64,000 bases of DNA. Origin: Burkholderiales bacterium. GTDB taxonomy: Bacteria > Pseudomonadota > Gammaproteobacteria > Burkholderiales > SG8-39. Each line of letters starts with the position of its first letter. Within the stretch, counting starts at the first letter, position 1. The notes beneath the pieces are model-generated. The model was not told the DNA's origin and did not search any database. It worked only from the letters and a program-made list of their open reading frames with translations. Shown one piece after another: positions 7,592 to 54,660 of the stretch. A program made the translations under genes and the position numbers. Where the stretch lies: contig JADGRQ010000005.1 in assembly GCA_017880775.1 (NCBI GenBank), positions 6,094-70,093 on the forward strand, in the 5' to 3' direction.

Positions 7592-8781
7592 ACCCGCGCC
7601 TGGCGCGGCTCCAGCCGTATCCGTTCGAGAAGCTGCGCGCGCTGCTCGCCGGAATCGAGCCGAACCGGGAGCTCTCGCCGATCAACCTGTCGATCGGCGA
7701 GCCCAAGCATCCGACGCCGGCCCTGGTACGCGACGCGCTGGTCGCCGCGCTGGACGGGCTGGCGGTCTATCCGGCGACCGCCGGTCTGCCGGCGCTGCGC
7801 GAAGCAATCGCGGATTGGCTGAAACGCCGCTATGCGCTCGCGGCCGTGGACGCGCTCACCCAGGTCTTGCCGGTGAACGGATCGCGCGAGGCGCTGTTCG
7901 CGTTCGCGCAGACGGTCATCGACGACGCTGCCGGCGATGCACTGGTCGTTTGCCCGAATCCGTTCTACCAGATCTACGAGGGCGCGGCGCTGCTTGCCGG
8001 CGCCAAGCCGGTGTTTCTCAACGCGCAACCGGACCACGGCTTCCGGCTCGATCCGGGCGAACTGCCGGATGCGGCCTGGCGCCGCGTGCAATTGATGTAC
8101 GTCTGCTCGCCCGCCAACCCGACCGGCACCGTGTGCACTCTGGACGACTGGCGCCGCCTGTTCGAACTGTCCGATCGGCATGGCTTTGTCATCGCCTCCG
8201 ACGAGTGCTACTCGGAGATCTACTGCGACGAATCCCGGCCACCGCTTGGCGCATTGCAGGCCGCCCACATGCTCGGCCGCGACGGTTATCCGCGCCTGGT
8301 TGTGTTCTCCAGCCTGTCGAAGCGCTCGAATTCGCCCGGAATGCGCTCGGGCTTCGTCGCCGGCGATGCGGCATTGCTGAAGAGCTTTCTGCTCTACCGC
8401 ACCTATCACGGTGGCGCGATGAGCGGCGCGGTGCAGCGCGCGTCGATCGCCGCCTGGCGCGACGAGGCGCACGTCAGGGAGAACCGCCGGCTGTACGCGG
8501 AGAAGTTCCGCGCTGCGCTGCCGCTGGTACGCAAACCTCTCGAAGCGGGCCTGCCCGGCGGCGGGTTTTATCTGTGGCTGCGCACGCCGATCGACGATTG
8601 CGAGTTCGCGCGCGAGTTGCAGCACCAATATAATGTGCTGGTACTGCCGGGGAGCTACCTTGCGCGCGATGCGCATGGCGCCAATCCCGGCCGCAATTAC
8701 GTGCGCATCGCGCTGGTCGCGCCGCAGGCCGAGTGCCTCGAAGCGATGCAGCGCATCGAGCGCTTTTCCCGACAACTCTGA
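7588..8781 (+). CDS. dapC: Succinyldiaminopimelate transaminase (class I aminotransferase)
   Basis: [20 protein letters not shown]...[13 protein letters not shown]-terminus and the SLSKRSN PLP-lysine region. Lies immediately upstream of dapD. Start taken at ATG 7588 (ATGA overlap with queF). Confidence 0.85.
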
Positions 8782-8788
8782 GCCCATC

Positions 8789-9610
8789 ATGCAAGACGCA
8801 CGACAGACCATTGAACGCGCCTGGGAAGAGCGCGCCGGGCTGAATGCCGCCAACGCGCCGGACGCGCTGCGCGATGCCGTCGATCAGGTCATCGCCGGGC
8901 TGGATGCCGGGCGCCTGCGCGTGGCGGAGAAATCGAACGGCGCGTGGATCACGCATCAGTGGCTCAAGAAAGCGGTGCTGTTGTCATTCCGCCTGGAGGA
9001 TAACCGGCTGCTGCCCGGCGCGTCGACCAACTACTATGACAAGGTCGCCGGAAAATTTGCGAATTACGATGCCGCGGCGTTCGCGGCTGGGGGATATCGC
9101 GTGGTTCCGCCTGCGATGGCGCGCCGCGGCGCCTTCATTGCCCGCAACGTCGTTTTGATGCCCTCTTACGTCAACATCGGGGCCTATCTGGACGAAGGGG
9201 CCATGGTCGATACCTGGGCGACGGTCGGTTCGTGCGCGCACATCGGAAAGAACGTGCACCTTTCCGGCGGCGTCGGCATCGGAGGGGTGCTGGAACCGCT
9301 GCAGGCCAATCCGACCATCATCGAGGACAACTGCTTTGTCGGCGCGCGCTCCGAGATCGTCGAAGGCGTCGTGGTCGAGGAAAACAGCGTGATCTCGATG
9401 GGGGTGTTCATCGGTCAGAGCACCAAGATTTTTGACCGTGCGACCGGAGAGATCATCTACGGCCGCGTGCCGTCGGGTTCTGTCGTGGTACCCGGTACGC
9501 TGCCGGCGGGGGACCGCAGTTGCGCCTTGTATTGTGCAGTCATCGTCAAGCGGGTGGACGCGAAGACCCGCGCCAAGACGAGCCTCAACGAACTGCTGCG
9601 CGGGGATTAG
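8789..9610 (+). CDS. dapD: 2,3,4,5-tetrahydropyridine-2,6-dicarboxylate N-succinyltransferase
   Basis: 273 aa from ATG 8789. Hexapeptide-repeat core ([40 protein letters not shown]) and a typical DapD C-terminus. Confidence 0.93.
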
Positions 9611-30980: not shown

Positions 30981-31526
30981 ATGCCGCTCTATTCATTGGA
31001 ACATCGCTCGGTCGAATTACGCGGCGAACATCATTTCATTGCGCATAACGCGACGCTCGCCGGCGCAATCGTGCTGGAGGCGAACGTCAGCGTGTGGTTC
31101 AACGTAGTCATCCGCGCCGACGATGACAGCGTGCATATCGGCGAAGCGAGCAACATTCAGGACGGTTCAATATTGCACGTCGATCCTGGTTACCCGATGA
31201 TCCTCGGCCGACAGGTCAGCATCGGCCACAAGGCCATGCTGCACGGCTGCAGCATCGGCGATGGCGCGCTGATCGGCATCAACAGCGTGGTCATGAACGG
31301 CGCAAAAATAGGACCCGGCTCGCTCATCGGCGCGAATGCCCTGATCCCGGAAGGCAAGGAGATCCCGGAAGGGGTGCTGGTGGTTGGCTCTCCGGGCAGG
31401 ATCGTGCGCGACCTGACGCCCGAGGAGCGTGAAAACCTGCTCAGGATTGCGCACGGCTACGTCGAACGCTCGAAGCTGTTCAAGGCGCAACTGCGCGAAC
31501 AGCCTCTGCCGGATTCGGCGTTGTAG
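30981..31526 (+). CDS. Gamma-carbonic-anhydrase-like left-handed beta-helix protein (YrdA/PaaY family)
   Basis: 181 aa. Hexapeptide repeats and the metal-ligand His pattern (IGHKAMLHGCSIG). Confidence 0.85.
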   Translation: MPLYSLEHRSVELRGEHHFIAHNATLAGAIVLEANVSVWFNVVIRADDDSVHIGEASNIQDGSILHVDPGYPMILGRQVSIGHKAMLHGCSIGDGALIGINSVVMNGAKIGPGSLIGANALIPEGKEIPEGVLVVGSPGRIVRDLTPEERENLLRIAHGYVERSKLFKAQLREQPLPDSAL

Positions 31527-42330: not shown

Positions 42331-45095
42331 GCCGGCCGCCCGTTGGTTTCAAGGTCAACGGCAAACGCATGCGCTTCAATGGCGCACCCATGGCGCGCCT
42401 GTCCGACGTGTTGCGGGACGAACTCGGGTTGACGGGCACCAAGATCGGTTGCAACGCGGGCGACTGCGGCGCGTGCACGGTGCTGCTCGATGGCCGGCAG
42501 GTCTGCGCCTGCCTCACGCCGGTCGGCCAGGTCGAAGGCCGCGAAGTGCTGACCGTGGAAGGTCTCGCGCGCGACGGCAAACTCTCCGCGCTGCAAGTCT
42601 CGTTTCAGAAGCACGGCGCCGCGCAATGCGGCATCTGCACGCCTGGCGCGCTGATGGCCGCCACTGACCTGCTCGCCCGCGTGCGCCGGCCGAACGCGGA
42701 CCAGGTGAAGGAGGCGCTCGGCGGAGTGCTGTGCCGCTGCACCGGCTACCAGAAGATCATCGAGGCCGTCATGGATGCCGCCGGCTCGCCCGCGATTCCT
42801 CGAGCACCGGCCGCGGAAGGGGCCATCGGTGCGCGCGTTCCGAAGATCGATGGCATCGCCAAGCTCACGGGTGCGGAGCGCTTCGGTGCGGACGCGATTC
42901 CGAAACAGGCGCTGTGGCTGCGCGTCGTGCGCTCCCCTCATCATCGCGCCCGCTTCACGATCGGCGACCTGGACGATGTCCTGCGGCACGCCCCGGGCCT
43001 GGCGCGGATCCTGTCCGCGCGGGACGTGCCCTCCAACGGCTTTGGCATTTATCCGAGCGTCAAGGACCAGCCAGTGCTCGCGGACGGGGAGGCGCGTTTT
43101 CGCGGCGAGGCAGTGCTTGCGCTGGTCGGAACGCGCGAGGCGGTCGAGGGACTTGACGATGCCGGCCTGCGGATCGAATACCAACCGCTGCCGCCGGTGA
43201 TGGGTCTCGATGCCGCAATGGCCCCCGGCGCGCCGCTGGTGCAGCCGGCGAAGCCCGGCAACCTGCTGCAGGACGGCGGCGTGCGCAAAGGCGATGCAGC
43301 GGCGCAGTTCGCGCATTGCGCAGCGCTCGCCGAAGGCTGCTTCGAAACCGCGTTCGTCGAGCACGCCTATGTCGAGCCCGAGGCCGGGTGGGCGGAACGC
43401 AAGGGCGACCGGATCGAAATCCACGTCACCACGCAGACGCCCTACATGGATCGCGACGAAGTGGCCGTGGTGATGAAGCTCGCGCCTGAGCAAGTGCGCA
43501 TCGTGCCGACTGCGTGCGGTGGCGGCTTCGGCGGAAAACTCGATCTGTCGGTGCAGCCGCTCATCGCGCTTGCCGCGTGGCTGACGCATAAACCCGTCGC
43601 CTGCATTTACACGCGCACGGAAAGCATGGCTTCGACCACCAAGCGGCATCCGTCGCGTATCCACGCGAAGTTCGGCTGCGATGCGCTCGGGCGACTCCTC
43701 GCCTGCGAAGTCGACGCGGATTTCGATACTGGCGCGTACGCGAGTTGGGGTCCTACGGTGGCGACGCGCGTTCCGATCCACGCGACCGGGCCCTATTCGG
43801 TGCCGCACGTCCGGACGCGAGGACGCGGATTTTTCACGCATTGCCATCCTTCCGGCGCGTTTCGCGGCTTCGGCGTTCCGCAGGGAGCGATCGCTCATGA
43901 GGCGATGATGGACGAACTCGCCGACCGGCTCGGCATCGACCGGTTGGAAATGCGCCGCCGCAATGCGCTGAAAGCGGGCGACCGGACCGCGACCGGCCAG
44001 TTGCTCGAGCATTCCGCGGGGCTGCTCGACTGCCTCGATGCGCTGCAGCCGCACTGGACGAGGATGAATGCCGAGTGCGCGCGGTTCAACCAGCAGGCAG
44101 CGCGCGCCGGCGACGCCTTGCGCCGAGGCGCGGGCATCGGCTGCATGTGGTACGGCATAGGCAATACATCGCTGTCGAACCCCTCGATCATTCGGGTGGG
44201 GCTTTCGCGTACCGGAAAAATCACGCTCTACAACGGCGCCGTGGACATCGGCCAGGGATCCAATACCATCCTCAGCCAGATCGCCGCCGACGCGCTCGGC
44301 CTGCCGATGAGCGATTTTCTGGTCGTGATGGGCGATACGGACCGGACTGCGGACGCCGGCAAGACATCGGCGTCGCGGCAGACTTTCGTGTCCGGAAATG
44401 CGGCAGAGTTTGCAGGCACGGACCTGCGCAGGAAAATCTTCCTCGCCGCCGGAGCGCCAGAAGGCGAGTGGCGCGACCGGCGCTACCGGCTTTCCGCTGA
44501 GCGCGGCGCGGTGGTGTTCCGCAAGGATGGCATCACCCATCGCCTCGAACTCGGCGCGCTTCCCGGTGACACCGACCGCGACGCGCTCACTGGCACGGGG
44601 ACCTTCGATCCACCGACCACGCCCTCCGATCAAGACGGCCAGGGCGTGCCCTACGCGACCTACGCGTTTGCCGCGCAAGTCGCACAGGTGGAAGTCGATC
44701 TGCAACTGGGCACAACGCGCGTGCTGCGGCTCGTCGCGGCGCATGACGTCGGTCGCGCCATCAACCCGATCCAGGTCGAGGGACAAATCCAGGGCGGCAC
44801 CGTCCAGGGCCTCGGCCTCGCGCTGATGGAAGAATATGTTCCGGGCAGGACCGAAAACCTGCACGATTACCTGATTCCCACCATCGGCGACGTTCCGCAT
44901 ATGGAGTGCATCCTCATCGAAGATGCGGAGCCGCTCGGCCCGTCCGGCGCGAAGGGCGTGGGCGAGCCGGGGTTGATTCCGACTGCGCCGGCGATCCTGG
45001 GCGCGATCCATGCGGCCACCGGCGTGCGCATGCGGCAGGTGCCGGTGCTGCCGCACCGCCTGCTCGCAGAGCTGCGAAAACATGCGCGACCCTGA
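42327..45095 (+). CDS. Fused [2Fe-2S] (CoxS-like) and molybdopterin-binding (CoxL-like) subunit of a xanthine dehydrogenase-family hydroxylase
   Basis: 922 aa from GTG 42327 (GTGA overlap). Ferredoxin CNAGDCGACTV...C and a second cluster CGICTPG...CRCTGY, followed by the a/b-hammerhead and Moco domains (GGGFGGK, GVGEPG). Confidence 0.88.
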   Translation: MSRPPVGFKVNGKRMRFNGAPMARLSDVLRDELGLTGTKIGCNAGDCGACTVLLDGRQVCACLTPVGQVEGREVLTVEGLARDGKLSALQVSFQKHGAAQCGICTPGALMAATDLLARVRRPNADQVKEALGGVLCRCTGYQKIIEAVMDAAGSPAIPRAPAAEGAIGARVPKIDGIAKLTGAERFGADAIPKQALWLRVVRSPHHRARFTIGDLDDVLRHAPGLARILSARDVPSNGFGIYPSVKDQPVLADGEARFRGEAVLALVGTREAVEGLDDAGLRIEYQPLPPVMGLDAAMAPGAPLVQPAKPGNLLQDGGVRKGDAAAQFAHCAALAEGCFETAFVEHAYVEPEAGWAERKGDRIEIHVTTQTPYMDRDEVAVVMKLAPEQVRIVPTACGGGFGGKLDLSVQPLIALAAWLTHKPVACIYTRTESMASTTKRHPSRIHAKFGCDALGRLLACEVDADFDTGAYASWGPTVATRVPIHATGPYSVPHVRTRGRGFFTHCHPSGAFRGFGVPQGAIAHEAMMDELADRLGIDRLEMRRRNALKAGDRTATGQLLEHSAGLLDCLDALQPHWTRMNAECARFNQQAARAGDALRRGAGIGCMWYGIGNTSLSNPSIIRVGLSRTGKITLYNGAVDIGQGSNTILSQIAADALGLPMSDFLVVMGDTDRTADAGKTSASRQTFVSGNAAEFAGTDLRRKIFLAAGAPEGEWRDRRYRLSAERGAVVFRKDGITHRLELGALPGDTDRDALTGTGTFDPPTTPSDQDGQGVPYATYAFAAQVAQVEVDLQLGTTRVLRLVAAHDVGRAINPIQVEGQIQGGTVQGLGLALMEEYVPGRTENLHDYLIPTIGDVPHMECILIEDAEPLGPSGAKGVGEPGLIPTAPAILGAIHAATGVRMRQVPVLPHRLLAELRKHARP

Positions 45096-46530
45096 AGACG
45101 CTCCGGAAAGCACCGATCCGATCAGCGCGGATGTCATCCGCTGCGACGCCTGCCCGGTACTGTGCCGCATCCGCAAGGGACAATCCGGCGCCTGCGACCG
45201 GTACGCCAATGCCGACGGCAGGCTGTTCAGGGTCGATCCGCTGGTGATCCTGCAGCGTACGCTCGATTCGGGCGGAAAGTTCGTGCCATTTCTCGACCCA
45301 AAACCCTGGAACGGTGAAATGATCCCGGCGGCGAATACCTTCGTGACCGGGATCGGCGCGACCACCACCTATCCGGACTACAAGCCTGCGCCTTTCATCG
45401 TTTCCTCGAAATCTGCCGGCGTCGACATGGTCACGGTGGTGACCGAAGGCATCTTCAGCTACTGCGGATTGAAGATCAAGATCGACACCGACCGCTATCT
45501 CGGGCCCGAGCAGGCCGCGGTACGCGTCGACGGCGAGCAGGTCGGGCATGTCACTACGGCCGAGTACGGGTCGCAGATGCTCGCGCTCGGCGGCGTGCGA
45601 CACCTGACCGGCGGCAGCAAGAAGGAAGGCAACGTCACCTGCGAGGCGATGCTCAAGCTCTCCAACAAGCAGGCCGTTGAGCTCGCCATCGACGGCGGCT
45701 CAAAAGTGCGGGTGCAGGCCGGCGCCGCGCCCATCGTCAACGGCGAGCAAGAGGAACGCATGCGCGTGGGCTGCGGCTCCGCGACGATCGGCATCTTTGC
45801 GAAGCAGTGGTTCGGGCACTGCGATGAAGTGATCGTCGTCGACGATCACATCACGGGCGTGCTCACCGAGCATCAGGCCGGGCGCTTTCTCGACATGCGT
45901 CCCGGAGGGATCCGCGTGCGCGGGCGCAAATCCACGCCGGGACGCTACTTCAAGGTCGCCGAGCCCGGCATGGGCTGGGGCGGCACCAACATCACCAAGC
46001 CGCTGTCGATCATCGAAAAGATCGACCCGAAGATCGCGTGGCCAGGCATGCGCCTGCTGATGGTCTCGACCACCGGAGAGGATGCGGCGTGGTTCGTGCT
46101 CGATCGAGACCTCAAGCCGCAGCCCGCCGCAATGCCCGATGCGGTGAAGCGGGTCGTCGAGCGGATCGCGGAGAACTGCGAGCCCGCGTTGTGCAGCGTC
46201 CTCTTCATGGGCGGTGCCGGCGGGTCGCTACGCGCGGGCGTCACCGAAAATCCGGTGCGGCTCACGCGCTCGGTGAAGGATCTTTTCACCCGGGTGACCT
46301 GCGGCGGCGCACCGGTGTATGTCTGGCCCGGCGGCGGCATCACCGTCATGGTCGACGTGCTGCGCATGCCGGACAGGTCCTTCGGCTACGTTCCGACCCC
46401 GGCGCTGGTGCTGCCGATCGAATTCACGATGACGCGCGACGTCTATGCGGAAATGGGCGGCCACGTCGGCAATATCGTGGCGCTGGAGGAAGTTCTGCGC
46501 ACCACCCGGCACGAGGTCCGGAGCGCGTGA
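45082..46530 (+). CDS. Cys-rich 482-aa protein of the family I recall being labelled 6-hydroxynicotinate reductase-like (function uncertain)
   Basis: The ATG at 45082 overlaps the upstream gene by 14 nt. N-terminal C-x2-C-x3-C-x10-C (IRCDACPVLCRIRKGQSGACDRY). Coding-like composition throughout. The family label comes from memory only. Confidence 0.5.
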   Translation: MRDPEDAPESTDPISADVIRCDACPVLCRIRKGQSGACDRYANADGRLFRVDPLVILQRTLDSGGKFVPFLDPKPWNGEMIPAANTFVTGIGATTTYPDYKPAPFIVSSKSAGVDMVTVVTEGIFSYCGLKIKIDTDRYLGPEQAAVRVDGEQVGHVTTAEYGSQMLALGGVRHLTGGSKKEGNVTCEAMLKLSNKQAVELAIDGGSKVRVQAGAAPIVNGEQEERMRVGCGSATIGIFAKQWFGHCDEVIVVDDHITGVLTEHQAGRFLDMRPGGIRVRGRKSTPGRYFKVAEPGMGWGGTNITKPLSIIEKIDPKIAWPGMRLLMVSTTGEDAAWFVLDRDLKPQPAAMPDAVKRVVERIAENCEPALCSVLFMGGAGGSLRAGVTENPVRLTRSVKDLFTRVTCGGAPVYVWPGGGITVMVDVLRMPDRSFGYVPTPALVLPIEFTMTRDVYAEMGGHVGNIVALEEVLRTTRHEVRSA

Positions 46531-47432
46531 ACGGTCCGGTAAGCGCTCGGTTCCCGGACGGACGGCTGCATCTGCAGCACGGGCCGATCGATCTGCTGAT
46601 CGAGGCGTTCGGCAAGCGGGACGAAGTCGAAGCTGCGTACCGGCAGGCGTGGGACCGGTTTCAGGACATTCTGCAGATGCTGGTCGATGAGCTTGCGATG
46701 CTGCGCGCGCGGGTCGGGCCTGCGTATCCGCTCGCGCGCGGGCCGGTGGCGAAGCGGATGGTGGCTGCCGTGTGGCCGCATCGCGACGTGTTCATTACGC
46801 CGATGGCTGCGGTGGCGGGCGCGGTGGCGGAGGAGATGCTTGAAGCGATGTGCGCGGGGCGCAGATTGCGAAAAGCCTATGTCAACAACGGAGGCGATAT
46901 CGCGCTTTGGCTCGGAGAGAGTGAATACTTCCGCGCAGGTGTCGTGGAGAACATCGCAGCTCCCGCGATCGGCGCGAGCGTCCCGATCCATTCGTACGAC
47001 GCGGTACGCGGCATCGCCACCTCTGGCTGGAAAGGTCGGTCGCAATCGCTCGGCATTGCAGATGCGGTGACGGTGCTTGCGCGGACCGCTTCTCAAGCCG
47101 ATGCCGCGGCGACGTTGATCGCCAATGCGGTGAACGTGGAACATCCGGCGATTCGCCGCATGCCGGCTTGCGCCGTGAAGGAGGATTCCGATCTCGGTCA
47201 CTTGCCGGTCACGGTGGAAGTCGGGGAATTGCCGCGGGAGGTTGTGCGCAGTGCGCTCGCCAATGGTTTCGCTGTCGCGCGCCGCATGCAGGCCGCCGGG
47301 CTGATCGATGCGGCCTATCTTGCGCTGCAGGGCCAAGCTCTGGTTGTCGCGTCGCCGACGCTCGTTGGCTACGGCAACGAATCCACCGGACTTCGCACGC
47401 CGCCGCCGCCGACCTTGAGCACGTGGGTGTAA
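46527..47432 (+). CDS. UPF0280 (ApbE-like superfamily) protein
   Basis: 301 aa from GTG 46527 (GTGA overlap). Contains [13 protein letters not shown] and [11 protein letters not shown] segments that I associate with UPF0280. The last 64 nt overlap the 3' end of the intI remnant on the other strand. Confidence 0.55.
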
Positions 47433-48049
47433 GTCACGGCGCGCTGGAAGGTCTGGTCGTACATATGGTGTCTGCGCACTACACCCGAGCGCGGATCGAC
47501 AGAATGATCGGCCTGTGGAAACACCCAGAACCATGTCCACGATGCGCCGGCGCGGGGATACTTGCGATCCAATGCGCCCGGCATCGACACACCGCTGCGC
47601 CCGGCCTCGCCGTCGGCCGACCAAAGAACCCGGGCCCGCGCCAATTGTTCGCGCAAAGCAGGCACCAGCGTCAGAGGCAGCATGACCGAGCGGTCCTTGA
47701 CGCCCTTTCCGGCTCGAATCACGATGGTGCACTGCTCGAAATCAACGTCCTTCACGCGCAACTGCAAGCCTTCGGTAATGCGCATGCCGGTGCGTTGATA
47801 CGGCCACATTACGCTCGTTGGCCAGCCAAGACAGAAACGCCTCCACCTCGGGCCCGCCTATCTCGCCGGGTGCCGGCGACCGTGGAAGAAAATGAACGCC
47901 CGTATCCAGTGGACGTACGCATCCTCGGTACGTATGCTGTAGTGGAGATAGTGGATGCGTTCACGCACTTGGTCCAACAGCCGGGCCGAGCGCAACGGCG
48001 GCAACTGCGCGGTCGGTCGGCCTGGACGAAGTGGGATGCCGGTTTTCAC
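47369..48049 (-). pseudogene. intI: Integron integrase intI, inactivated (premature TAG/frameshift plus two internal deletions)
   Basis: ORFs 47858..48049 (MKTG...[47 protein letters not shown]) and 47369..47809 ([15 protein letters not shown]...[17 protein letters not shown]...[37 protein letters not shown]) are colinear with recalled IntI1. A bridging segment [25 protein letters not shown] lies in a third frame. Confidence 0.85.
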
Positions 48050-48061
48050 GGTTTGTTAGTA

Positions 48062-48077
48062 CTGTATGGATACACAG
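48062..48077. promoter_or_regulatory. LexA (SOS) box, CTGT-N8-ACAG
   Basis: CTGTATGGATACACAG within the 20-mer TACTGTATGGATACACAGTA. It lies 13 nt upstream of the intI GTG start and overlaps the candidate -10 element. Confidence 0.65.
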
Positions 48078-48104
48078 TATATGGCCGGGAAAGCCTGAAA
48101 GCAA
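48076..48104 (-). promoter_or_regulatory. Candidate PintI promoter
   Basis: Minus strand reads TTGCTT-N17-TATACT. The -10 hexamer is overlapped by the LexA box. Confidence 0.4.
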
Positions 48105-48150
48105 GCGGGTTCCGGGCCATCATGGTCGCCAGGATAGGGCGCACACGGCC

Positions 48151-48190
48151 ATGCTACGCAGCAAAGCTGTCGCCCGATATTACGTTAGGT
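48151..48190 (+). other. attI recombination site (simple site), crossover predicted at G48184|T48185
   Basis: ATGCTACGCAGCAAAGCTGTCGCCCGATATTACGTTAGGT compared with recalled attI1 ATGTTACGCAGCAGGGCAGTCGCCCTAAAACAAAGTTAGGC. It ends in a GTTRRRY core (GTTAGGT). Confidence 0.6.
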
Positions 48191-48196
48191 TTTCCG

Positions 48197-48757
48197 GTGA
48201 GCGACGCGCGAGCAATCATAGAGAAGCTAAACGAAGAGGGCTTAGCGGCTCGCGCGCACTTCCAGATTTGGTGGGCTCTTCGAAATCTGGCCCTTCCCGA
48301 TTTCTACGACGCAATGAACGACTATTCCTACGTAAATTTCTTTCACGCCTCAAACGCGGGACACTACAAGCTGTTCTTCTTGGCGCTATCAAAGATCTTT
48401 GATCGCGACGCTCGTACCTCGGGTATCTCAAACCTACGCGAGGCACTCCGTAGCGAAGGACACAATAGCATCGCCGATCAGTTGGAAAAGCGGCTTTCGC
48501 CATTGACGGCAGTAGTTGCTCGGCTCATGGCCATTCGCAATCAGACGATCGTCCACAATGACCGCAGCTTGTCCCGGGAAAAGGTCTACGAGATAAACGG
48601 CATTACACCAGACCAAGTTCGCGATCTAATCAATGACACGTGCGCAACCATCAATGAAGTGGCACGCGGGCTTGGGGTTCCTGAAGGTCTATTCGATGAT
48701 CGATACGACCGGGCGACCATCGCGATGCTTGAGGCACTTCGACGCGGGAAAATCTAA
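48197..48757 (+). CDS. Cassette 1: HEPN-like (AbiU2-like?) protein with Rx5H motif, function unknown
   Basis: 186 aa from GTG 48197, the first start after the attI core (ATG 48122 would lie upstream of the crossover point). The motif RNQTIVH at 48536-48556 fits HEPN R-x4-6-H. AT-richer codon usage than the host. Its stop codon lies inside the attC R'' core. Confidence 0.5.
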   Translation: MSDARAIIEKLNEEGLAARAHFQIWWALRNLALPDFYDAMNDYSYVNFFHASNAGHYKLFFLALSKIFDRDARTSGISNLREALRSEGHNSIADQLEKRLSPLTAVVARLMAIRNQTIVHNDRSLSREKVYEINGITPDQVRDLINDTCATINEVARGLGVPEGLFDDRYDRATIAMLEALRRGKI

Positions 48758-48838
48758 CATGCAGCTGGTGCGGACGGGCCGGATGCGTCGTACAAGTTCA
48801 ACCATTGTGCGGGCCCGCCGCACAGCACAACGTTAGAC
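48752..48838 (+). repeat. attC site 1 (87 bp)
   Basis: R'' ATCTAAC ... R' GTTAGAC. L'' CTGGTGCGGACGGGCC pairs with L' GGGCCCGCCGCACAG, leaving two extrahelical bases (G and A). Confidence 0.85.
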
Positions 48839-48890
48839 GCTCAAGACGCCCCTCCCCAAAAAATACTCCGCCTTTTCCCAGCCGACATCC

Positions 48891-49424
48891 ATGCAGTTCA
48901 AGCACAGAGACGCAATGGACTCCGACCTTCCTCGGGTCGTCGAAATCTACAACTATGCGGTAGCCTCACGCATGTGCAGTTGCGATCTCGAGCCAACGAC
49001 CGTTGAAGCGCGAAGACCCTCGTTCTTATCTCACACTCCAAATCACAGGCCGTTTTGGGTCGCAGAAGACCCTGCGAAGCCCCAACAAGGCGCTATCGGC
49101 TACCTTGGCTTCTTCCACTTTATGAACGAGCGGCCAGGATACTTCATCACAGCTGATATTGCGATCTACTTGCACCCGAAGTACCAGAACAGAGGGTTGG
49201 GCACATATCTTCTTGCCAAGGCAATTGAGCGGTCGCCGTCTCTCGGAATAGAAACACTGACGGCAACGATCTTCGCTAGCAATGGCGCCAGCATTCGTCT
49301 GTTCGAAAAAATGGGCTTTCAGCGCTGGGGCTTAATGCCCCGAGTTGCTCGCCTGGAGGGAACTGAGAAGGACCTTGTTCTTGTCGGCCGCAGGATCACA
49401 GAGCCATTGCCAAGAGCGGCCTAA
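48891..49424 (+). CDS. Cassette 2: GNAT-family N-acetyltransferase (phosphinothricin/MSO acetyltransferase-like)
   Basis: 177 aa. Acetyl-CoA motif HPKYQNRGLGTYLL and the typical N-terminus DLPRVVEIYNYAV. Alternative start at ATG 48915. Confidence 0.85.
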   Translation: MQFKHRDAMDSDLPRVVEIYNYAVASRMCSCDLEPTTVEARRPSFLSHTPNHRPFWVAEDPAKPQQGAIGYLGFFHFMNERPGYFITADIAIYLHPKYQNRGLGTYLLAKAIERSPSLGIETLTATIFASNGASIRLFEKMGFQRWGLMPRVARLEGTEKDLVLVGRRITEPLPRAA

Positions 49425-49496
49425 CCCGCTGGTCAACCGGACCAACTCCAGTCGGCTTCGCCTCCTTCCGTTGGCCGGTTACCAGCAACGTTAGCC
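49419..49496 (+). repeat. attC site 2 (78 bp)
   Basis: R'' GCCTAAC ... R' GTTAGCC. L'' CTGGTCAACCGGACCAAC pairs with L' GTTGGCCGGTTACCAG, leaving two extrahelical bases (C and A). The stop TAA lies inside R''. Confidence 0.85.
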
Positions 49497-49535
49497 GTCA
49501 GATACCGCTCGATCACATTGGCCGTTAGGAACACT

Positions 49536-49961
49536 ATGGACAAGCAATCGTTCTTCTGGAAGATCATGGCCGGTGAGTTGCCTCCGCCCAGAGCTGCCAC
49601 AACACTCGGTATCGTTTTCAAGCACATTGATGCTGCCGCAGGCACGATCGAAGTCGAACTGCAAGGAAGGCCAGAGTTCACGAATCCGGCAGGCAACATC
49701 CAAGGCGGCTTTCTGGCTGCAATGCTCGATGACACGATGGGTCCCGCCCTGGCTGCCACGTTGAAAGAAGGTCAATTCGCACCGACGCTGAACCTCAATC
49801 TATCATTCCATCGGCCAGCGATTGTTGGTTCACTCGTCGGTAAAGGTCGCGTGGTGAAGCGCGGAAAGGATGCCTGTTTCCTCTCAGGTGAGCTGTATCA
49901 AGAGGGCGAGCTTGTTGCTTCGGCCACTGCCACGGCAATCATTCGCGCTATTCCAAAATGA
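49536..49961 (+). CDS. Cassette 3: PaaI-family hotdog-fold thioesterase
   Basis: 141 aa from ATG 49536 (AGGAA RBS). NPAGNIQGGFLAAMLDDTMG motif and a hotdog C-terminal strand pattern. Confidence 0.85.
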   Translation: MDKQSFFWKIMAGELPPPRAATTLGIVFKHIDAAAGTIEVELQGRPEFTNPAGNIQGGFLAAMLDDTMGPALAATLKEGQFAPTLNLNLSFHRPAIVGSLVGKGRVVKRGKDACFLSGELYQEGELVASATATAIIRAIPK

Positions 49962-49962
49962 C

Positions 49963-50037
49963 GGCTAACCATCACTCAACGCGACGCCGCTCATGCTCCG
50001 CTCTCCGTGGTATCACCGCTCGCGGCGCGCGTTAGCT
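49963..50037 (+). repeat. attC site 3 (75 bp, atypical geometry)
   Basis: R'' GGCTAAC is the exact complement of R' GTTAGC(T). GCGACGCCGC pairs with GCGGCGCGC, leaving one extrahelical A. The spacers are very asymmetric (11 nt against 0), so the fold is non-canonical. Confidence 0.55.
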
Positions 50038-50147
50038 CCACGTTGTCCTTATCACGCGAGCGCCGAGAATGCTCAACCGCGGTGTGTTAATCGTCCGTCC
50101 GAAGCAGCCGTATCTCGCCTGATCTGCCGGAATGGAAGATAGTCTTG

Positions 50148-50384
50148 ATGCCGACAATCCTGCGTGACGGGCCGTTCCGATTCTTCTTCTACGCGAGCGA
50201 TCGGGACGAGCCACCGCACATTCACGTCGAACGCGACGATAATGTCGCCAAGTTCTGGCTCGACCCGGTGCGGTTACAAAGCAGCGGCGGATTCTCCAGG
50301 GTGGAGATCAACCAGATTGACGGACTGGTGAATGAGCACCAGCGCGAACTGTTGGAGGCTTGGAATGAGTATTTCCGCGGTTGA
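50148..50384 (+). CDS. DUF4160 domain-containing protein (putative toxin-like partner)
   Basis: 78 aa. The PPHIHV motif and overall pattern are as in DUF4160. Overlaps the next ORF by 20 nt. Confidence 0.75.
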   Translation: MPTILRDGPFRFFFYASDRDEPPHIHVERDDNVAKFWLDPVRLQSSGGFSRVEINQIDGLVNEHQRELLEAWNEYFRG

Positions 50385-50715
50385 ATTTGAAATTCCCCTC
50401 GCCCGGACGGCCAGGGTCACGAGCGACACCCTACAGGTCGATCTATCCGATGGTCGCACCATCTCGGTTCCGCTCGCGTGGTATCCGCGACTGGTTCATG
50501 CCACGGCGGAAGAACGCAAAGGATGGCGGCTGATTGCACGCGGTCGGGGAATTCACTGGGCGTCCATTGACGAAGACATAAGCGTGGAGGGTCTCCTCGC
50601 CGGAAGAGCATCCGGAGAAAGCCAGTCCTCATTCAAGCGATGGCTGAGTTCCCGCTCATCGCGACTGGCACGGTCAACCGCGCTGCGCAAGAACGGCGCG
50701 CGCCGACAACGCTGA
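50365..50715 (+). CDS. DUF2442 domain-containing protein (putative antitoxin-like partner)
   Basis: 116 aa from ATG 50365. VDLSDGRTISVPLAWYPRLVHATAEERKGWRLIARGRGIHWASIDEDISVEGLL matches the DUF2442 pattern. The Ser/Arg-rich C-terminal tail looks like read-through. Confidence 0.7.
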   Translation: MSISAVEFEIPLARTARVTSDTLQVDLSDGRTISVPLAWYPRLVHATAEERKGWRLIARGRGIHWASIDEDISVEGLLAGRASGESQSSFKRWLSSRSSRLARSTALRKNGARRQR

Positions 50716-50839
50716 CGTTACATCGCAAAGCGAAACCTGAGTTCGGCGATCTGATCTGGAGAGGGACACAGCTGAGTCGCAAACTTCGCCGCAGGTGACA
50801 GGCCCCGGCGGGCGACCATGATTCCCAAGGAGGCAGGAC

Positions 50840-51484
50840 ATGTCCAAGCTGCGCTTCAAGATCTCGATGTCGCTCGACGGCTTTGTTGCCGGCCCCAGCC
50901 AGAGCGTGGACAACCCCCTTGGGATCGGCGGCGGGCGCCTTCACGAGTGGGCCTTTCAACTTGCGGTGTTTCGCGCGCTGCTTGGTCTTGAAGGCGGCAA
51001 GGTCAACGAAAGCACCCCGGTCGTCGAGGAGTCGCTCGCCAACATCGGCGCCACGCTGATGGGGCGCAACATGTTCGGCGGCCACCCCGGCCCGTGGGAT
51101 CCCGGGAAACCGTGGAACGGCTGGTGGGGAGTCAACCCGCCGTTCCATCACCCCGTGTTTGTACTCACGCATCACGCGCGCGAACCACTCGAACTCGAAG
51201 GCGGAACGACATTCACGTTCGTCACGGACGGCATCGCGGCGGCGCTCGCACAGGCGCGTCATGCCGCCGGCGGCAAGGATGTATCGCTCGGCGGCGGAGC
51301 GAGAGCCGCACAGCAGCTTCTCGCGACCGGCCTGGTGGACGAGATGGAGATCAATCTCGTGCCGACGCTCCTCGGCAGCGGTGAGCGGCTTTTCGATGGT
51401 GTCGGCGACGATCTGCACGGGCTCGTGCTCGTGCGGACGGTCGCCGCGCCAAAGGTAACGCACCTCAAGTTCGCAAGGCGCTGA
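50840..51484 (+). CDS. Dihydrofolate reductase-family protein (RibD C-terminal domain)
   Basis: 214 aa with a GGAGG RBS. MSLDGFVAGP ... GLVDEMEINLVPTLLGSGERLF pattern. GC is back at host level. Confidence 0.82.
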   Translation: MSKLRFKISMSLDGFVAGPSQSVDNPLGIGGGRLHEWAFQLAVFRALLGLEGGKVNESTPVVEESLANIGATLMGRNMFGGHPGPWDPGKPWNGWWGVNPPFHHPVFVLTHHAREPLELEGGTTFTFVTDGIAAALAQARHAAGGKDVSLGGGARAAQQLLATGLVDEMEINLVPTLLGSGERLFDGVGDDLHGLVLVRTVAAPKVTHLKFARR

Positions 51485-51528
51485 GAGGGCAGTGTAAGAT
51501 TGCGGACGAATCCAGGAGGGAGACCAAG

Positions 51529-52716
51529 ATGAAACTCACGCAGCGCATCGTCGCAGGTGCTGTCATCGCTCTCGCCGCAGGCAGCGCGCACGCCCAGGTC
51601 AAGGTCGGGGAACTGAACAGCTACAAGACCTTCCCCGCCTTCCTCGAACCGTACAAGAAAGGCTGGCAGCTCGCGCTCGACGAAATCAACGCCTCCGGCG
51701 GACTGCTCGGCCAGAAAGTCGAGGTCATCTCGCGCGAGGACGGCGGCACGCCGGGCGATGCGGTGCGCGTCGCCGAGGAACTGCTGGCGCGTGAAAAGGT
51801 GAACCTGATCATGGGCACGTTTGCCTCCAACGTCGGCCTGGCCGTTTCGAACCTCGCGGCACAGCGCAAAGTCCTGTTCATCGCCGCCGAGCCGCTCACC
51901 GACAAGATCGTCTGGGAGAACGGCAACCGCTACACCTTCCGGGTCCGTCCTTCCACCTACATGCAGACTGCAATGCTGATTCCCGACGCGGTGAAACTCA
52001 AGAAACAGCGCTGGGCGATCGTCTATCCCAACTACGAGTACGGCCAGTCGGCCACCCGCTGGTTCAAGGAACTGATGGCGAAGGCCCAGCCCGGCGTGCA
52101 ATTCGTCGGCGAGCAGGCCCCGGCGCTCGGCAAAATCGACGCAGGCGCCGTGGCCCAGGCGCTCGCGGATGCGAAGCCGGACGCAATTTTCAGCTCGCTG
52201 TTCGGTGCCGACCTGCAAAAGTTCGTGCGCGAAGGCAATCTGCGCGGCCTGTTCAAGAACACCGTGGTATTCAACCTGCTCGCCGGCGAACCCGAGTACC
52301 TCGATCCGCTCAAGGAAGAGACGCCCGATGGCTGGTACGTGACGGGGTATCCGTGGAACGAGATCAACACGCCCGCGCACAAGAAGTTCCGCGAGGCCTA
52401 CCAGAAGAAATGGAAGGACTACCCCCGACTCGGCTCGATCGTCGGCTATTCGACCATGCAGACCGTCGCCAACACGATCCGCAAGGCGAAGAGCGCGGAG
52501 ACCGAGAAGATGATCGAGGCACTGCGCGGCATGGAGATGGACACCCCGATCGGCCCGATCGTATGGCGGGCGGTCGACCACCAGTCCACCATGGGCGCCT
52601 ACGTCGGCAGACTCGCCAGGAAAGGCGACAAGGGTGTGATGGTGGACTGGAAGTTCGCACCGGGCGACCAGTACCTGCCCTCGTTCGAGCAGATCAAGGG
52701 ATGGCGCAAGGAATAA
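51529..52716 (+). CDS. ABC transporter substrate-binding protein (LivK/branched-chain amino acid-binding family)
   Basis: 395 aa. Signal peptide MKLTQRIVAGAVIALAAGSAHA and a type I periplasmic binding fold pattern. Confidence 0.85.
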   Translation: MKLTQRIVAGAVIALAAGSAHAQVKVGELNSYKTFPAFLEPYKKGWQLALDEINASGGLLGQKVEVISREDGGTPGDAVRVAEELLAREKVNLIMGTFASNVGLAVSNLAAQRKVLFIAAEPLTDKIVWENGNRYTFRVRPSTYMQTAMLIPDAVKLKKQRWAIVYPNYEYGQSATRWFKELMAKAQPGVQFVGEQAPALGKIDAGAVAQALADAKPDAIFSSLFGADLQKFVREGNLRGLFKNTVVFNLLAGEPEYLDPLKEETPDGWYVTGYPWNEINTPAHKKFREAYQKKWKDYPRLGSIVGYSTMQTVANTIRKAKSAETEKMIEALRGMEMDTPIGPIVWRAVDHQSTMGAYVGRLARKGDKGVMVDWKFAPGDQYLPSFEQIKGWRKE

Positions 52717-52785
52717 GCAGGAAAGGGGGGCTCCAGCAGAACGCTTCTGCCCCCCTTTGACCCCCCGCCCGGGGGCGCCCACACC

Positions 52786-54660
52786 GTGAGCTCCTCCGCG
52801 ATCGCAATTCAGTTCTTGAACGGCCTGGCGAGCGCCTCGTCGCTGTTTCTCGTCGCCGCCGGGCTGTCGCTGATCTTCGGCGTCACGCGCATCGTCAATT
52901 TCGCGCACGGCTCGCTTTACATGCTCGGCGCGTACATGGCCTATAGCCTGGTCGAATACTTCGGCCGCACGCCGCTCGGTTTCTGGGGTGGCGTGATGAT
53001 CGCGGGCCTCGCCGCGGGATTGATCGGAGCCGTTCTGGAAATCGTCCTGCTGAGGCGCCTCTATCAGGCGCCGGAGCTGCTGCAACTGCTCGCGACGTTC
53101 GCGCTGGTGCTGGTGATCAAGGATTTCGCCCTCTGGGTGTGGGGCCCGGAAGACCTGCTCGGCCCGCGTGCGCCCGGGTTCGACCAGGCCGTCGCCATTG
53201 CAGGACGCGCTTTCCCGGAATTCGACCTGCTGCTGATTGCGATCGGGCCGGTCGTGCTCGGGCTGCTGTGGCTGCTGCTCACGCGCACGCGCTGGGGCAC
53301 CCTGGTGCGCGCAGCGACCGAAGACCGCGAGATGGCCGGTGCGCTGGGCGTCAATCAGGCGTGGCTGTTCACCGGCGTGTTCGCGCTCGGGTCGCTGCTC
53401 GCGGGCATCGGGGGCGCGATCAACATCCCGCGCGAACCCGCAACGCTGGGCATGGACCTCTCGATCATCTCCGACGTGTTCGTCGTCGTCGTGGTCGGCG
53501 GGATGGGCTCGATCCCGGGCGCGTTTCTCGCCGCGCTGCTGATCTCGGTGATCAAGGCATTCTGCATCGGCATCGGCGAAGTGCATGCGTTCGGCATCGA
53601 TTTCTCCTTCTCCAAGCTCACGCTGGTGGTCGAATTCATCGTCATGGCGATCGTGCTGGTAATCCGGCCCTGGGGCCTGCTCGGGCGCCCCTCGGCCGTC
53701 GCCCGCGGACCCGGCACGGTCGAAGACCCGCTGCGTGCGCCGCCGCGGCCGCTGCTCGCCTTCGGCGCCGCAATGCTCGCCATCCTGGTGCTGATGCCGC
53801 TGTTGAGCGATGCATATACGCTGGTGCTTCTCGGCGACATTCTCGTGTTCGCGCTGTTTTCAGTGAGCCTGCACTTCATCATCGGTCCGGCAGGAATGCA
53901 CTCGTTCGGCCATGCGGCCTACTTCGGCCTTGGTGCATACGGTGCGGCCCTCGCGCTCAAGCACCTGATGCCGATGGAAGCCGCGCTGTTCGCGGGACCG
54001 CTCGCGGCGGCGTTGGGCGCCCTGCTCTTCGGCTGGTTCTGCGTACGCCTGTCGGGCGTGTACCTCGCGATGCTGACGCTCGCCTTCGCGCAGATCACCT
54101 GGTCGATCGTATTCCAGTGGGACACGTTCACCGGCGGCTCGAACGGCCTGGTCGATGTCTGGCCCGCGGCATGGCTCGGCTCCAAGACCGCCTACTACTA
54201 CCTCACGCTCGCGCTCGCCACGGCGGGGATCCTGCTGCTGTGGCGCATGCTGTACGCACCGTTCGGCTATGCGTTGCGCGCCGGGCGCGATTCGCCATTA
54301 CGCGCCGATGCGATCGGCATCGACGTCCGCCGCACCCAATGGGCGGGATTCGTGCTTGCCGGACTGTTCGCCGGCCTGGCGGGCGCAGTGTATGCATTCT
54401 CCAAGGGCTCGATTTCGCCCGAGGTGGTCGCGATTCCGCGCTCGGTGGACGGCTTGGTGATGGTGCTGCTCGGCGGCATCCAGACGCTGACCGGACCGGT
54501 GGCCGGCGCCGCCGTATTCACCTGGCTGCAGGACACCATCGCGCGCAACACCGACTTCTGGCGCGCGACGCTCGGCATGATCATTCTGGTTCTGGTGCTG
54601 GCCTTCCCGCGGGGGGTGACTGGAATGCTGCGGCGGCGATTCATGCGGGAGCCCGCATGA
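52786..54660 (+). CDS. Fused LivH-like/LivM-like ABC transporter permease
   Basis: 624 aa with a GTG start. The N-terminal half is LivH-like (FLNGLASASSLFLVAAGLSLIFG) and the C-terminal half LivM-like (GHAAYFGLGAY). Polytopic throughout. Confidence 0.85.
   Translation: MSSSAIAIQFLNGLASASSLFLVAAGLSLIFGVTRIVNFAHGSLYMLGAYMAYSLVEYFGRTPLGFWGGVMIAGLAAGLIGAVLEIVLLRRLYQAPELLQLLATFALVLVIKDFALWVWGPEDLLGPRAPGFDQAVAIAGRAFPEFDLLLIAIGPVVLGLLWLLLTRTRWGTLVRAATEDREMAGALGVNQAWLFTGVFALGSLLAGIGGAINIPREPATLGMDLSIISDVFVVVVVGGMGSIPGAFLAALLISVIKAFCIGIGEVHAFGIDFSFSKLTLVVEFIVMAIVLVIRPWGLLGRPSAVARGPGTVEDPLRAPPRPLLAFGAAMLAILVLMPLLSDAYTLVLLGDILVFALFSVSLHFIIGPAGMHSFGHAAYFGLGAYGAALALKHLMPMEAALFAGPLAAALGALLFGWFCVRLSGVYLAMLTLAFAQITWSIVFQWDTFTGGSNGLVDVWPAAWLGSKTAYYYLTLALATAGILLLWRMLYAPFGYALRAGRDSPLRADAIGIDVRRTQWAGFVLAGLFAGLAGAVYAFSKGSISPEVVAIPRSVDGLVMVLLGGIQTLTGPVAGAAVFTWLQDTIARNTDFWRATLGMIILVLVLAFPRGVTGMLRRRFMREPA

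Follow-up and report, generated by a model that had tools for sequence, protein, structure and literature searches.

Evidence for a class-1-related chromosomal integron with a dead integrase and three attC-bounded cassettes at a variable spot in an uncultured Burkholderiales-type bacterium

A Burkholderiales chromosome is regarded as the probable source of class 1 integrons, and integrons are found in about 10% of betaproteobacterial genomes (PMC8618304). Many Xanthomonas integrases are inactivated (PMC8618304), and recognisable intI pseudogenes lie near 15 of 279 clusters of attC sites lacking integron-integrases (CALINs) (Cury et al. 2016, PMC4889954). We analysed a stretch of 64,000 nucleotides (the window) from the Burkholderiales bacterium assembly GCA_017880775.1 (contig JADGRQ010000005.1, positions 6,094 to 70,093), numbered here from its first letter. 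The window very probably carries a class-1-related chromosomal integron with a dead integrase and three cassettes with intact attC sites, residing in a variable spot of the chromosome of an uncultured Burkholderiales-type bacterium. This is a known kind of element that does not overturn current understanding, and we present it as a clean decay intermediate of modest interest.

The locus comprises two open reading frames (ORFs) on the minus strand, at 47858-48049 and 47369-47809, beyond which lie five on the plus strand. The two minus-strand ORFs match the Pfam families Phage_int_SAM_4 and Phage_integrase and are recognised by both NCBIfam integron integrase models. NF011946 gave 215 bits on the C-terminal fragment and 82 bits on the N-terminal one, and TIGR02249 gave 174 and 41 bits, respectively, while the XerC, XerD and XerA models reached only 24-34 bits. 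The IntI-specific insertion of 20 residues, the additional-domain signature, is retained in the remnant. A reading made earlier from the letters alone (the sequence-only reading) had proposed a minus-strand intI pseudogene at this place, with integron-integrase models as the check on it; these models match, the signature is kept and three lesions were mapped. A metagenome scan yielded 80 related intI loci, and L047 (CXWL01005656.1) and L048 (Ga0209342_10027302) have full-length intI frames that are 90-95% identical to the remnant at the nucleotide level; L080 and L092 are class 1 integron loci. The lesions, defined by a three-way alignment of the window with L047 and L048, are as follows.

47369-48049, minus strand: intI pseudogene, with a GTG start at 48049 and a TAG stop at 47371-47369; 222 of about 338 codons kept
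Between 47870 and 47871, minus strand: lesion 1, a 1-bp deletion giving a frameshift after codon ~60, seen as a frame change in the three-frame translation
Between 47786 and 47785, minus strand: lesion 2, a 191-bp deletion of IntI1-equivalent residues 81-144
Between 47437 and 47436, minus strand: lesion 3, an in-frame 135-bp deletion of IntI1-equivalent residues 261-311

The protein encoded by the kept codons is 93% identical to that of L048, 91% to that of L047 and 75% to IntI1, and at 75% identity the integrase is therefore not intI1. In the intact relatives, the edges of the 191-bp deletion are the near-repeats GCATCGGC and GCACGGGC; together, the 191-bp and 1-bp deletions bring the reading frame back. 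Residue positions were read from the IntI1 of the class 1 locus L080, in which positions 146, 171, 277, 280, 303 and 312 are R, K, H, R, H and Y, respectively; these six residues form the catalytic pocket of IntI1, as in other tyrosine recombinases. The equivalents of R146, K171 and Y312 are kept, and those of H277, R280 and H303 lie within the 135-bp deletion, so that the gene is unable to encode an active recombinase. Judged by its sequence, the integrase is thus dead, having lost about one third of the protein and, with it, half of the catalytic pocket (three of six residues). No second copy of intI was found in the window by tblastn with IntI1. A CALIN has at least two attC sites and no integrase call by IntegronFinder; the 146-residue fragment might pass the two-profile test of this program, which would then call a complete integron here.

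The platform is homologous to those of L047 and L048, with 85-96% nucleotide identity from the intI stop codon (47369-47371) through the intergenic region to the attI crossover, the homology ending at 48189/48190 (GTTAGG). Three regulatory or recombination elements were located in it.

47910-47938, plus strand: Pc-like promoter TGGACG-N17-TATGCT, within the intI coding region
48060-48079, no strand assigned: LexA (SOS) box TACTGTATGGATACACAGTA, 11 nucleotides upstream of the intI start codon
48150-48190, plus strand: attI core CATGCTACGCAGCAAAGCTGTCGCCCGATATTACGTTAGGT, with the crossover between G48184 and T48185, aligning with attI1 GATGTTACGCAGCAGGGCAGTCGCCCTAAAACAAAGTTA

The Pc-like site aligns column for column with PcW (TGGACA-N17-TAAGCT) of L080 and L092 and is conserved in L047 and L048; we infer that this promoter within intI would transcribe cassettes 1-3. 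The LexA box is the sole match in the 64 kb, even with two mismatches allowed (0.15 expected). It is conserved in L047 and L048, and its CTGT-N8-ACAG is positionally homologous to the class 1 box. Perfect and placed over the integrase promoter region, this box would now regulate a pseudogene only. The attI ends in GTTAGGT at 48184-48190, where the homology to L047 and L048 breaks. The divergent promoter region with a LexA box, the attI ending in GTTAGGT and the correct order and orientation of all parts, as described in the sequence-only reading, were therefore found again: intI is followed by the divergent Pint/LexA region and Pc, then by attI and the cassettes, an arrangement homologous, base by base, to that of class 1 and of L047/L048.

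Relatives of this integrase gene present breaks of their own. In L043 (ena:ERZ27254842:k141_1052968; 1300-1500 and 1900-2000), intI lacks its 5' part and directly follows a transposase gene of the IS110 family; its nucleotide identity to the intI of the window is 95%. The homology begins at GGC/ATGCGCATT, at most 3 nucleotides from the right edge of the 191-bp deletion of the window, and this gene keeps the region of the 135-bp deletion and has a 2-nucleotide deletion at the catalytic Tyr codon. Many database relatives of this integrase, with P0004, P0014, P0033, P0044 and P0118 as examples, are broken near the catalytic region by independent lesions. P0014 has HMYD joined to a frame-shifted IYTHVL region, and P0118, P0033 and P0044 diverge directly after H(S/T)LRH, two of them sharing YAA(Y/F)RTMPSK..ACGLGGASR, which resembles a common inserted element. 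The intI of L048 (2017-3033) has an Asn in place of the box II histidine (LLGNSDV vs LLGHSDV) and a 12-bp gap (FKRAV vs FQRAFKRAV) in common with the window, and its product may, from these residues, not be fully active either. A second decayed integron, in an unrelated chromosomal context, was observed in L044-L046 (Logan SRR21821671 and related, ~8150-8948), with intI split into ORFs of 66 and 165 amino acids and one attC match of 27.8 bits on the cassette side (L044 6634-6710).

The motif CTAAC-N50-80-GTTAG has three matches in the 64 kb, all in the array region, compared to 0.06 expected. As Rfam has no attC family (a permissive scan of 46000-52000 gave two chance matches only), we built our own covariance model, R1. 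The 80 metagenomic intI loci yielded strict RYYYAAC...GTTRRRY hairpins, 46 of them on the side of intI where the cassettes lie and 3 on the opposite side. After duplicates and weak folds had been dropped, 28 attC sites, none of them from the window, were used for training. The R-box plus L-box structure imposed on their alignment is 93.8% paired and exhibits a covariation of 0.424, compared to 0.155 for shuffled sequences and no more than 0.093 with the partners slid. The search of the whole window on both strands (128 kb), with filters off, gave the following matches.

48752-48838, plus strand: attC1, 87 nucleotides; 34.9 bits, E 1e-5; R'' ATCTAAC, R' GTTAGAC
49419-49496, plus strand: attC2, 78 nucleotides; 46.4 bits, E 3e-8; R'' GCCTAAC, R' GTTAGCC
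49963-50048, plus strand: attC3, 86 nucleotides; 34.3 bits, E 1.5e-5; R'' GGCTAAC, R' GTTGTCC (50042-50048)
31461-31519, minus strand: next best match, 11.6 bits, E 1.4

The three sites are 55-60% identical to each other. Two single-base bulges of attC2 fall at consensus extrahelical positions, and in the model alignment the first unpaired consensus position is a C in attC2 and attC3, the second an A in all three sites. On the bottom strand, which is the recombinogenic one, these unpaired C and A are the counterparts of the extrahelical G and T. Compared with shuffled sequences, the fold of attC1 has z-scores of −4.7 (top strand) and −3.0 (bottom strand), and that of attC2 of −4.7 and −5.2. 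The stop codons of the first two cassette ORFs lie within R'', with TAA at 48755-48757 in attC1 and at 49422-49424 in attC2. The imperfect CTAAC...GTTAG palindromes with extrahelical bases that had been proposed to end the cassettes, and the stop codons placed inside two of them, are therefore retained, and the covariance check proposed with them was made in an equivalent form, the independent R1 giving 34-46 bits for the three sites. Simpler patterns performed poorly. A relaxed hairpin finder (YAAC...GTTR, with R boxes paired in the minimum free energy (MFE) fold) gave about 20 matches per strand and missed attC3; it was useless because the window is GC-rich, and was dropped. The strict RYYYAAC/GTTRRRY pattern found attC1 only, as attC2 and attC3 have R' boxes that do not conform to it.

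Each of the three attC sites closes a single-ORF cassette, and all three cassettes are co-oriented with Pc.

48185-48832, plus strand: cassette 1 (648 bp), ORF 48197-48757, HEPN_AbiU2-family (PF18734, 54 bits)
48833-49490, plus strand: cassette 2 (658 bp), ORF 48891-49424, GNAT acetyltransferase (PF00583, 59 bits)
49491-50042, plus strand: cassette 3 (552 bp), ORF 49536-49961, hotdog-fold (4HBT/PaaI-like) thioesterase (PF03061, TIGR00369)

Of the cassette lengths proposed before (648, 658 and 541 bp), the first two stand and the third is corrected to 552 bp, the right boundary of cassette 3 being fixed by the covariance model and by a homology break in two contigs of the same population, L131 and L133. 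The attC3 crossover lies between G50042 and T50043, 11 bp to the right of the earlier boundary. A crossover at GTTAGCT (50031-50037) was considered and rejected. In the R1 reading this motif is contained in L', and R1 keeps it as L' even without the true R', since the sequence cut at 50038 (R' lost) gives an 18.6-bit partial match with the same L-box alignment; moreover, L131 and L133 break at 50041-50042. The second attC of L131, which is 79.5% identical to attC3, reads ...GCGCGTTAGCTTCAC/GTTGAGC.

The cassette 2 protein is distantly ArsN1/PAT-like, with 76.7 bits against the NCBIfam ArsN1a model, below its cutoff of 170. None of the cassettes is a classical resistance gene, as already stated in the sequence-only reading, their products being of the HEPN/AbiU2, GNAT and hotdog thioesterase kinds. 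No close homologue of the cassette proteins was found in 72,556 plasmids; the plasmid homologues of the GNAT protein are at most 39% identical, and the cassette 1 protein has none in this set. PADLOC gave no match for any of the six insert proteins. The cassette DNA had no blastn match in 126 loci (relatives including L047 and L048), and matches in later loci came only from the same strain (L130) or from the attC3-like site of L131. By exact-protein look-up, the GNAT cassette protein is on record only in L130. Integron cassettes have been reported to store anti-phage functions (bioRxiv 10.1101/2024.07.02.601686), and an abortive-infection-type HEPN in the first cassette fits such reports.

Population contigs were found by searching with the protein of a RibD_C gene at the distal end of the array. 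Contig L130 is 100% identical to the window over 47441-52505 and represents an independent assembly of the same strain. L131 is 99.0% identical over 50041-51909, with other cassettes and attC sites to the left, encoding an MtlR/HEPN-like protein, a 170-residue protein without Pfam match and a ParE/Phd pair (R1 attC matches of 49.9, 41.7 and 10.7 bits). L133 is 97.6% identical over 50041-52397 and has yet another attC to the left (29.9 bits). Together with the window, the contigs L130-L133 make five contigs from five sequencing samples, in which the distal array and the flank are common at 97.6-100% identity. The arrays of the window, L131 and L133 all join the common sequence at G/TTGTCC, which fixes the attC3 crossover and means that the next unit (unit 4) starts at a true cassette junction. 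The comparison with related genomes that had been suggested thus shows that the array content varies, L131 and L133 diverging exactly at the attC crossover. As near-identical strains switch cassettes at the attC3 crossover, integrase-mediated cassette exchange took place at this locus in the recent past of the population, and as such strains differ in their cassettes, the inactivation of the integrase would be recent or strain-specific. No contig linking the dead intI to an alternative array was found.

Beyond attC3, the array ends in a toxin-antitoxin unit, followed by the RibD_C gene.

50043-50723, plus strand: unit 4, fossil cassette, with a 105-nucleotide leader, DUF4160, DUF2442 and a decayed attC
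50148-50384, plus strand: DUF4160 (DhiT-like toxin; PF13711, 69 bits)
50365-50715, plus strand: DUF2442 (antitoxin partner; PF10387, 74 bits)
50663-50723, plus strand: decayed attC, with GACTGGC at the R'' position and an R'-like GTTACAT
50840-51484, plus strand: RibD_C ('dihydrofolate reductase family') gene, accessory, linked to the distal array end

Over the decayed attC of unit 4, R1 remained below 2 bits. A regular attC after the DUF2442 gene or after the RibD_C gene was considered and rejected, R1 giving at most 4 bits in 50050-51600. As no attC is detectable after 50048, the cassette status of unit 4 rests on the shared junction at its 5' end, common to the window, L131 and L133, and on homology to L127. 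In L127, a homologous pair lies within an attC array (R1 matches of 20, 24.1 and 27.1 bits), and the 27.1-bit attC overlaps the 3' end of DUF2442. Relative to L127 and L128, the window and L129 have lost the TAAC of R'' and three spacer bases, and in the window the L box no longer pairs. With its attC decayed, unit 4 is therefore locked in place. The DUF2442 family is very large.

Some further observations concern this unit. In L129 (logan:SRR19430217_205118, 1-1489), the DUF4160/DUF2442 pair is 89% identical to that of the window at the nucleotide level and has the same decayed attC; its 84-nucleotide upstream spacer is unrelated to the 105-nucleotide leader of the window. The arrangement in L129 may stem from loss of the integron or from a separate arrival of the pair. 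The leader of the window (50043-50147) is dissimilar to what precedes the homologous pairs in L127, L128 and L129 and gave no blastn match in the 126 loci; L130-L133, contigs of the same species, are the only ones in which it recurs. A promoter of the pair itself may lie in this leader. In L131 (2132-2341), the DUF4160 ORF ends early, with 69 instead of 79 amino acids (...NEHQRELL*), and to judge from this truncation the toxin may be inactivated in that strain.

The RibD_C gene is missing from the locus in 42 of 42 related genome loci, and no attC follows it in the window. A homologue with 51% protein identity is the first cassette of L048, where it is followed by a 43-bit attC. The RibD_C protein is unusually conserved: of its 7997 matches (E ≤ 1e-30), the best 120 have full-length identities of 86-100%, and Rhodoferax ferrireducens and an Acidobacteria metagenome-assembled genome (MAG) occur among the names of these entries. 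Such conservation suggests frequent horizontal spread.

The locus is neighboured by a UPF0280 gene on one side and by a branched-chain-type ABC transporter (binding-protein) gene on the other, and the nearest genome representatives are uncultured Betaproteobacteria/Burkholderiales-type MAGs. An alphaproteobacterial host, notable had it been true, was considered and rejected in view of these genomes. In the near relative L001, the proteins of the neighbouring genes are 83-91% identical to those of the window; in L002, the UPF0280 protein is 69% identical and those of the other neighbouring genes 90-98%. The spacing between the UPF0280 and ABC binding-protein genes is at most about 0.55 kb in about ten relatives, compared to 4.1 kb in the window. 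Because the gap of the relatives is only ~0.55 kb, everything that lies between the two genes in the window is accessory, from the intI remnant through the cassettes and the toxin-antitoxin pair to the RibD_C gene. The same gap contains a different insert of ~5.5 kb with unrelated ORFs in L001 (10846-16366) and a 0.8-kb insert with one ORF in L002 (7330-8130), and neither insert has an attC match by the R1 model or an intI at the locus. The gap between these two genes is a variable spot. The array had been placed between a core-looking UPF0280 gene and a DHFR-family gene; the UPF0280 gene is indeed the neighbour, and the DHFR-family gene is the RibD_C gene, an accessory one. The region had also been described as AT-richer than its flanks, in agreement with a G+C content of 0.54-0.56 across the cassette region (48185-50147) against ~0.66 in the flanks. 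It is 0.60 over the toxin-antitoxin pair and 0.657, as in the host, over the RibD_C gene.

The last ~21 codons of the UPF0280 ORF of the window are antisense to the 3' end of intI, and the UPF0280 family shows natural variation in its C-terminal tails. We also observed a 529-residue plus-strand ORF (47168-48757), open from within UPF0280 through the intI antisense and attI into cassette 1; in the identical contig L130, it was called as the first gene, reduced to 438 amino acids by the contig end. Gene callers take the 529-residue ORF, and automatic annotation consequently hides the intI pseudogene and the true 186-residue HEPN/AbiU2 ORF of the cassette. Exact-protein look-ups returned no record for the UPF0280 protein, the ABC binding protein or the 146-residue intI fragment. 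A small ORF beside the transporter gene is common to L001 and L129 (1322-1489) and reads M..FVEQ.VTYAL.MNGK.F.IEHV...VCVETGEQLFSPDTVE.L.RTIW.

Several points weigh against the reading of the locus as an integron with three intact attC sites and a fossil fourth unit. The training harvest of R1 used a consensus pattern of our own choice, and its E-values are rough. The fold of attC3 is not significant (z-scores of −0.8 to −1.8), its R boxes being unpaired in the MFE fold. The predicted Pc-like site is under the threshold of a generic sigma-70 scan, with 8 of 12 positions matched against a 9-of-12 rule, and the scan called no promoter; the weak PcW variant of class 1 would likewise fall under the threshold of such a scan. 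No attC is detectable after 50048, with R1 at most at 4 bits anywhere in 50050-51600, and in L129 the pair stands directly after UPF0280 without intI or cassettes, so that it may belong to the spot. In the extreme, the palindromes might be chance hairpins or repetitive extragenic palindrome-like (REP-like) repeats beside a degraded phage or Xer-type recombinase, in keeping with the hairpin-rich nature of high-GC genomes and the ~20 candidates per strand of the relaxed finder. However, the recombinase fragments are integron-specific (174-215 bits vs ~30 for Xer), the platform, attI included, is homologous to class 1, the R1 scores of the three sites stand more than 22 bits above those of all other hairpins, and the population breakpoints fall on crossover bases; we consider that explanation refuted and its probability negligible. 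A strictly sedentary chromosomal integron, long resident, inherited vertically at the locus and decaying in situ, is a possibility that we hold with some doubt. It would account for the five contigs from five samples sharing the distal array and flank, for the distant L129 with the same pair and the same decayed attC beside UPF0280, and for the lack of transposon or plasmid features flanking the platform. By the criteria of Cury et al. (2016; PMC4889954), sedentary integrons have over 19 attC sites or occur in all genomes (100%) of a species, and their attC sites resemble each other more closely than do those of mobile ones, whereas only three, dissimilar attC sites are detectable here; in addition, the nearest genome representatives L001 and L002 are without intI or attC at the locus, and the same platform (90-95% nucleotide identity) adjoins unrelated chromosomal genes in L047 and L048. 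The designation 'environmental sedentary integron' given in the sequence-only reading is therefore not supported by the published criteria.

It is also conceivable, though on the whole unlikely, that the toxin-antitoxin pair and the RibD_C gene are hotspot residents rather than cassettes and that the integron, from intI to attC3, landed beside them. The pair of L129 directly following UPF0280, the different 5.5-kb insert at the same place in L001, the lack of a detected attC after 50048 and the host-like G+C of RibD_C all fit this view. On the other hand, three different arrays join the unit precisely at its left end (TTGTCC at 50043), as a cassette boundary would predict, the homologous pair of L127 is bounded by attC matches (24.1 and 27.1 bits) in an array, the attC of the pair has the same derived changes at its R'' position in the window and in L129, and the RibD_C homologue of L048 is a bona fide first cassette. 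A quite unlikely explanation is that the array, despite its own dead integrase, is still remodelled in trans by another integron integrase of the cell or the community, which would act on the intact attI and attC sites. It draws on attC1-3 being intact and on strains that are 98-99% identical downstream carrying other proximal cassettes joined at the crossover base. The search for a second intI, negative, covered the 64-kb window and leaves room for one elsewhere in the genome. Against this explanation, an intact intI may have been kept where the arrays differ, the lesions being recent and strain-specific, and no contig joins the dead intI to an alternative array. If remodelling in trans were true, 'decayed' integrons and CALIN-like arrays would be live substrates and not fossils.

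The reading that we prefer is that of a class-1-related chromosomal integron whose own integrase is dead and whose three proximal cassettes keep intact attC sites. The array of the window strain would then be frozen unless an integrase were supplied in trans, and unit 4 is immobilised as the distal unit by the decay of its attC. Toxin-antitoxin cassettes are reported to be linked to array dynamics (PMC13108822); here, the pair would help to retain the array and disfavour loss of the region. The locus provides one well-resolved case of chromosomal integron death, and the order of decay would be that the integrase was lost first, through microhomology deletions hitting the catalytic pocket, with attI, the putative Pc, the LexA box and the attC sites left intact. 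At its distal end, the array is anchored by a toxin-antitoxin unit whose attC is dead, and cassette exchange can be followed at single-base resolution in uncultured bacteria.

The toxin-antitoxin pair is comparable to the type II system dhiTA of Dickeya dadantii, which likewise is a DUF4160/DUF2442 pair of overlapping genes with the toxin gene first (PMC8198452). Their similarity is weak, however, the DUF4160 protein of the window giving 26.7 bits with the DhiT equivalog model (cutoff 100), and unlike dhiTA the pair described here is the last, immobilised unit of an integron array, with a predicted toxin role. As in the Xanthomonas integrons and the CALINs with an intI pseudogene, the array was kept after integrase function had been lost; in contrast to them, it is very short, with heterogeneous attC sites and cassettes that vary among near-identical strains. 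L047 and L048 have the closest platform sequences and similar kinds of cassettes (GNAT in L047; RibD_C and PIN in L048), but they have complete intI frames and no cassette in common with the window, and they adjoin other chromosomal genes (AMP-binding ligase; hydantoinase B).

With class 1 integrons, the locus shares a putative Pc placed at the same intI codons, a CTGT-N8-ACAG box ahead of the start of intI, an alignable attI core (...TACGCAGCA..GTCGCCC...GTTA) and 75% identity over the retained IntI residues. It differs from them by its dead integrase and by non-resistance cassettes without close plasmid homologues, and no tni-, qacE- or sul1-like genes of Tn402 or the 3'-conserved segment were found among the ORFs classified in 45000-53000. 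The lineage of the window, L047 and L048 may, in a mild reading of the sequence comparison, stand close to the class 1 platform as its chromosomal sister and shed light on how that platform arose. As a fairly close relative of the clinically important class 1 integron within the Burkholderiales, the locus offers a point of comparison for the ancestry of the class 1 platform.

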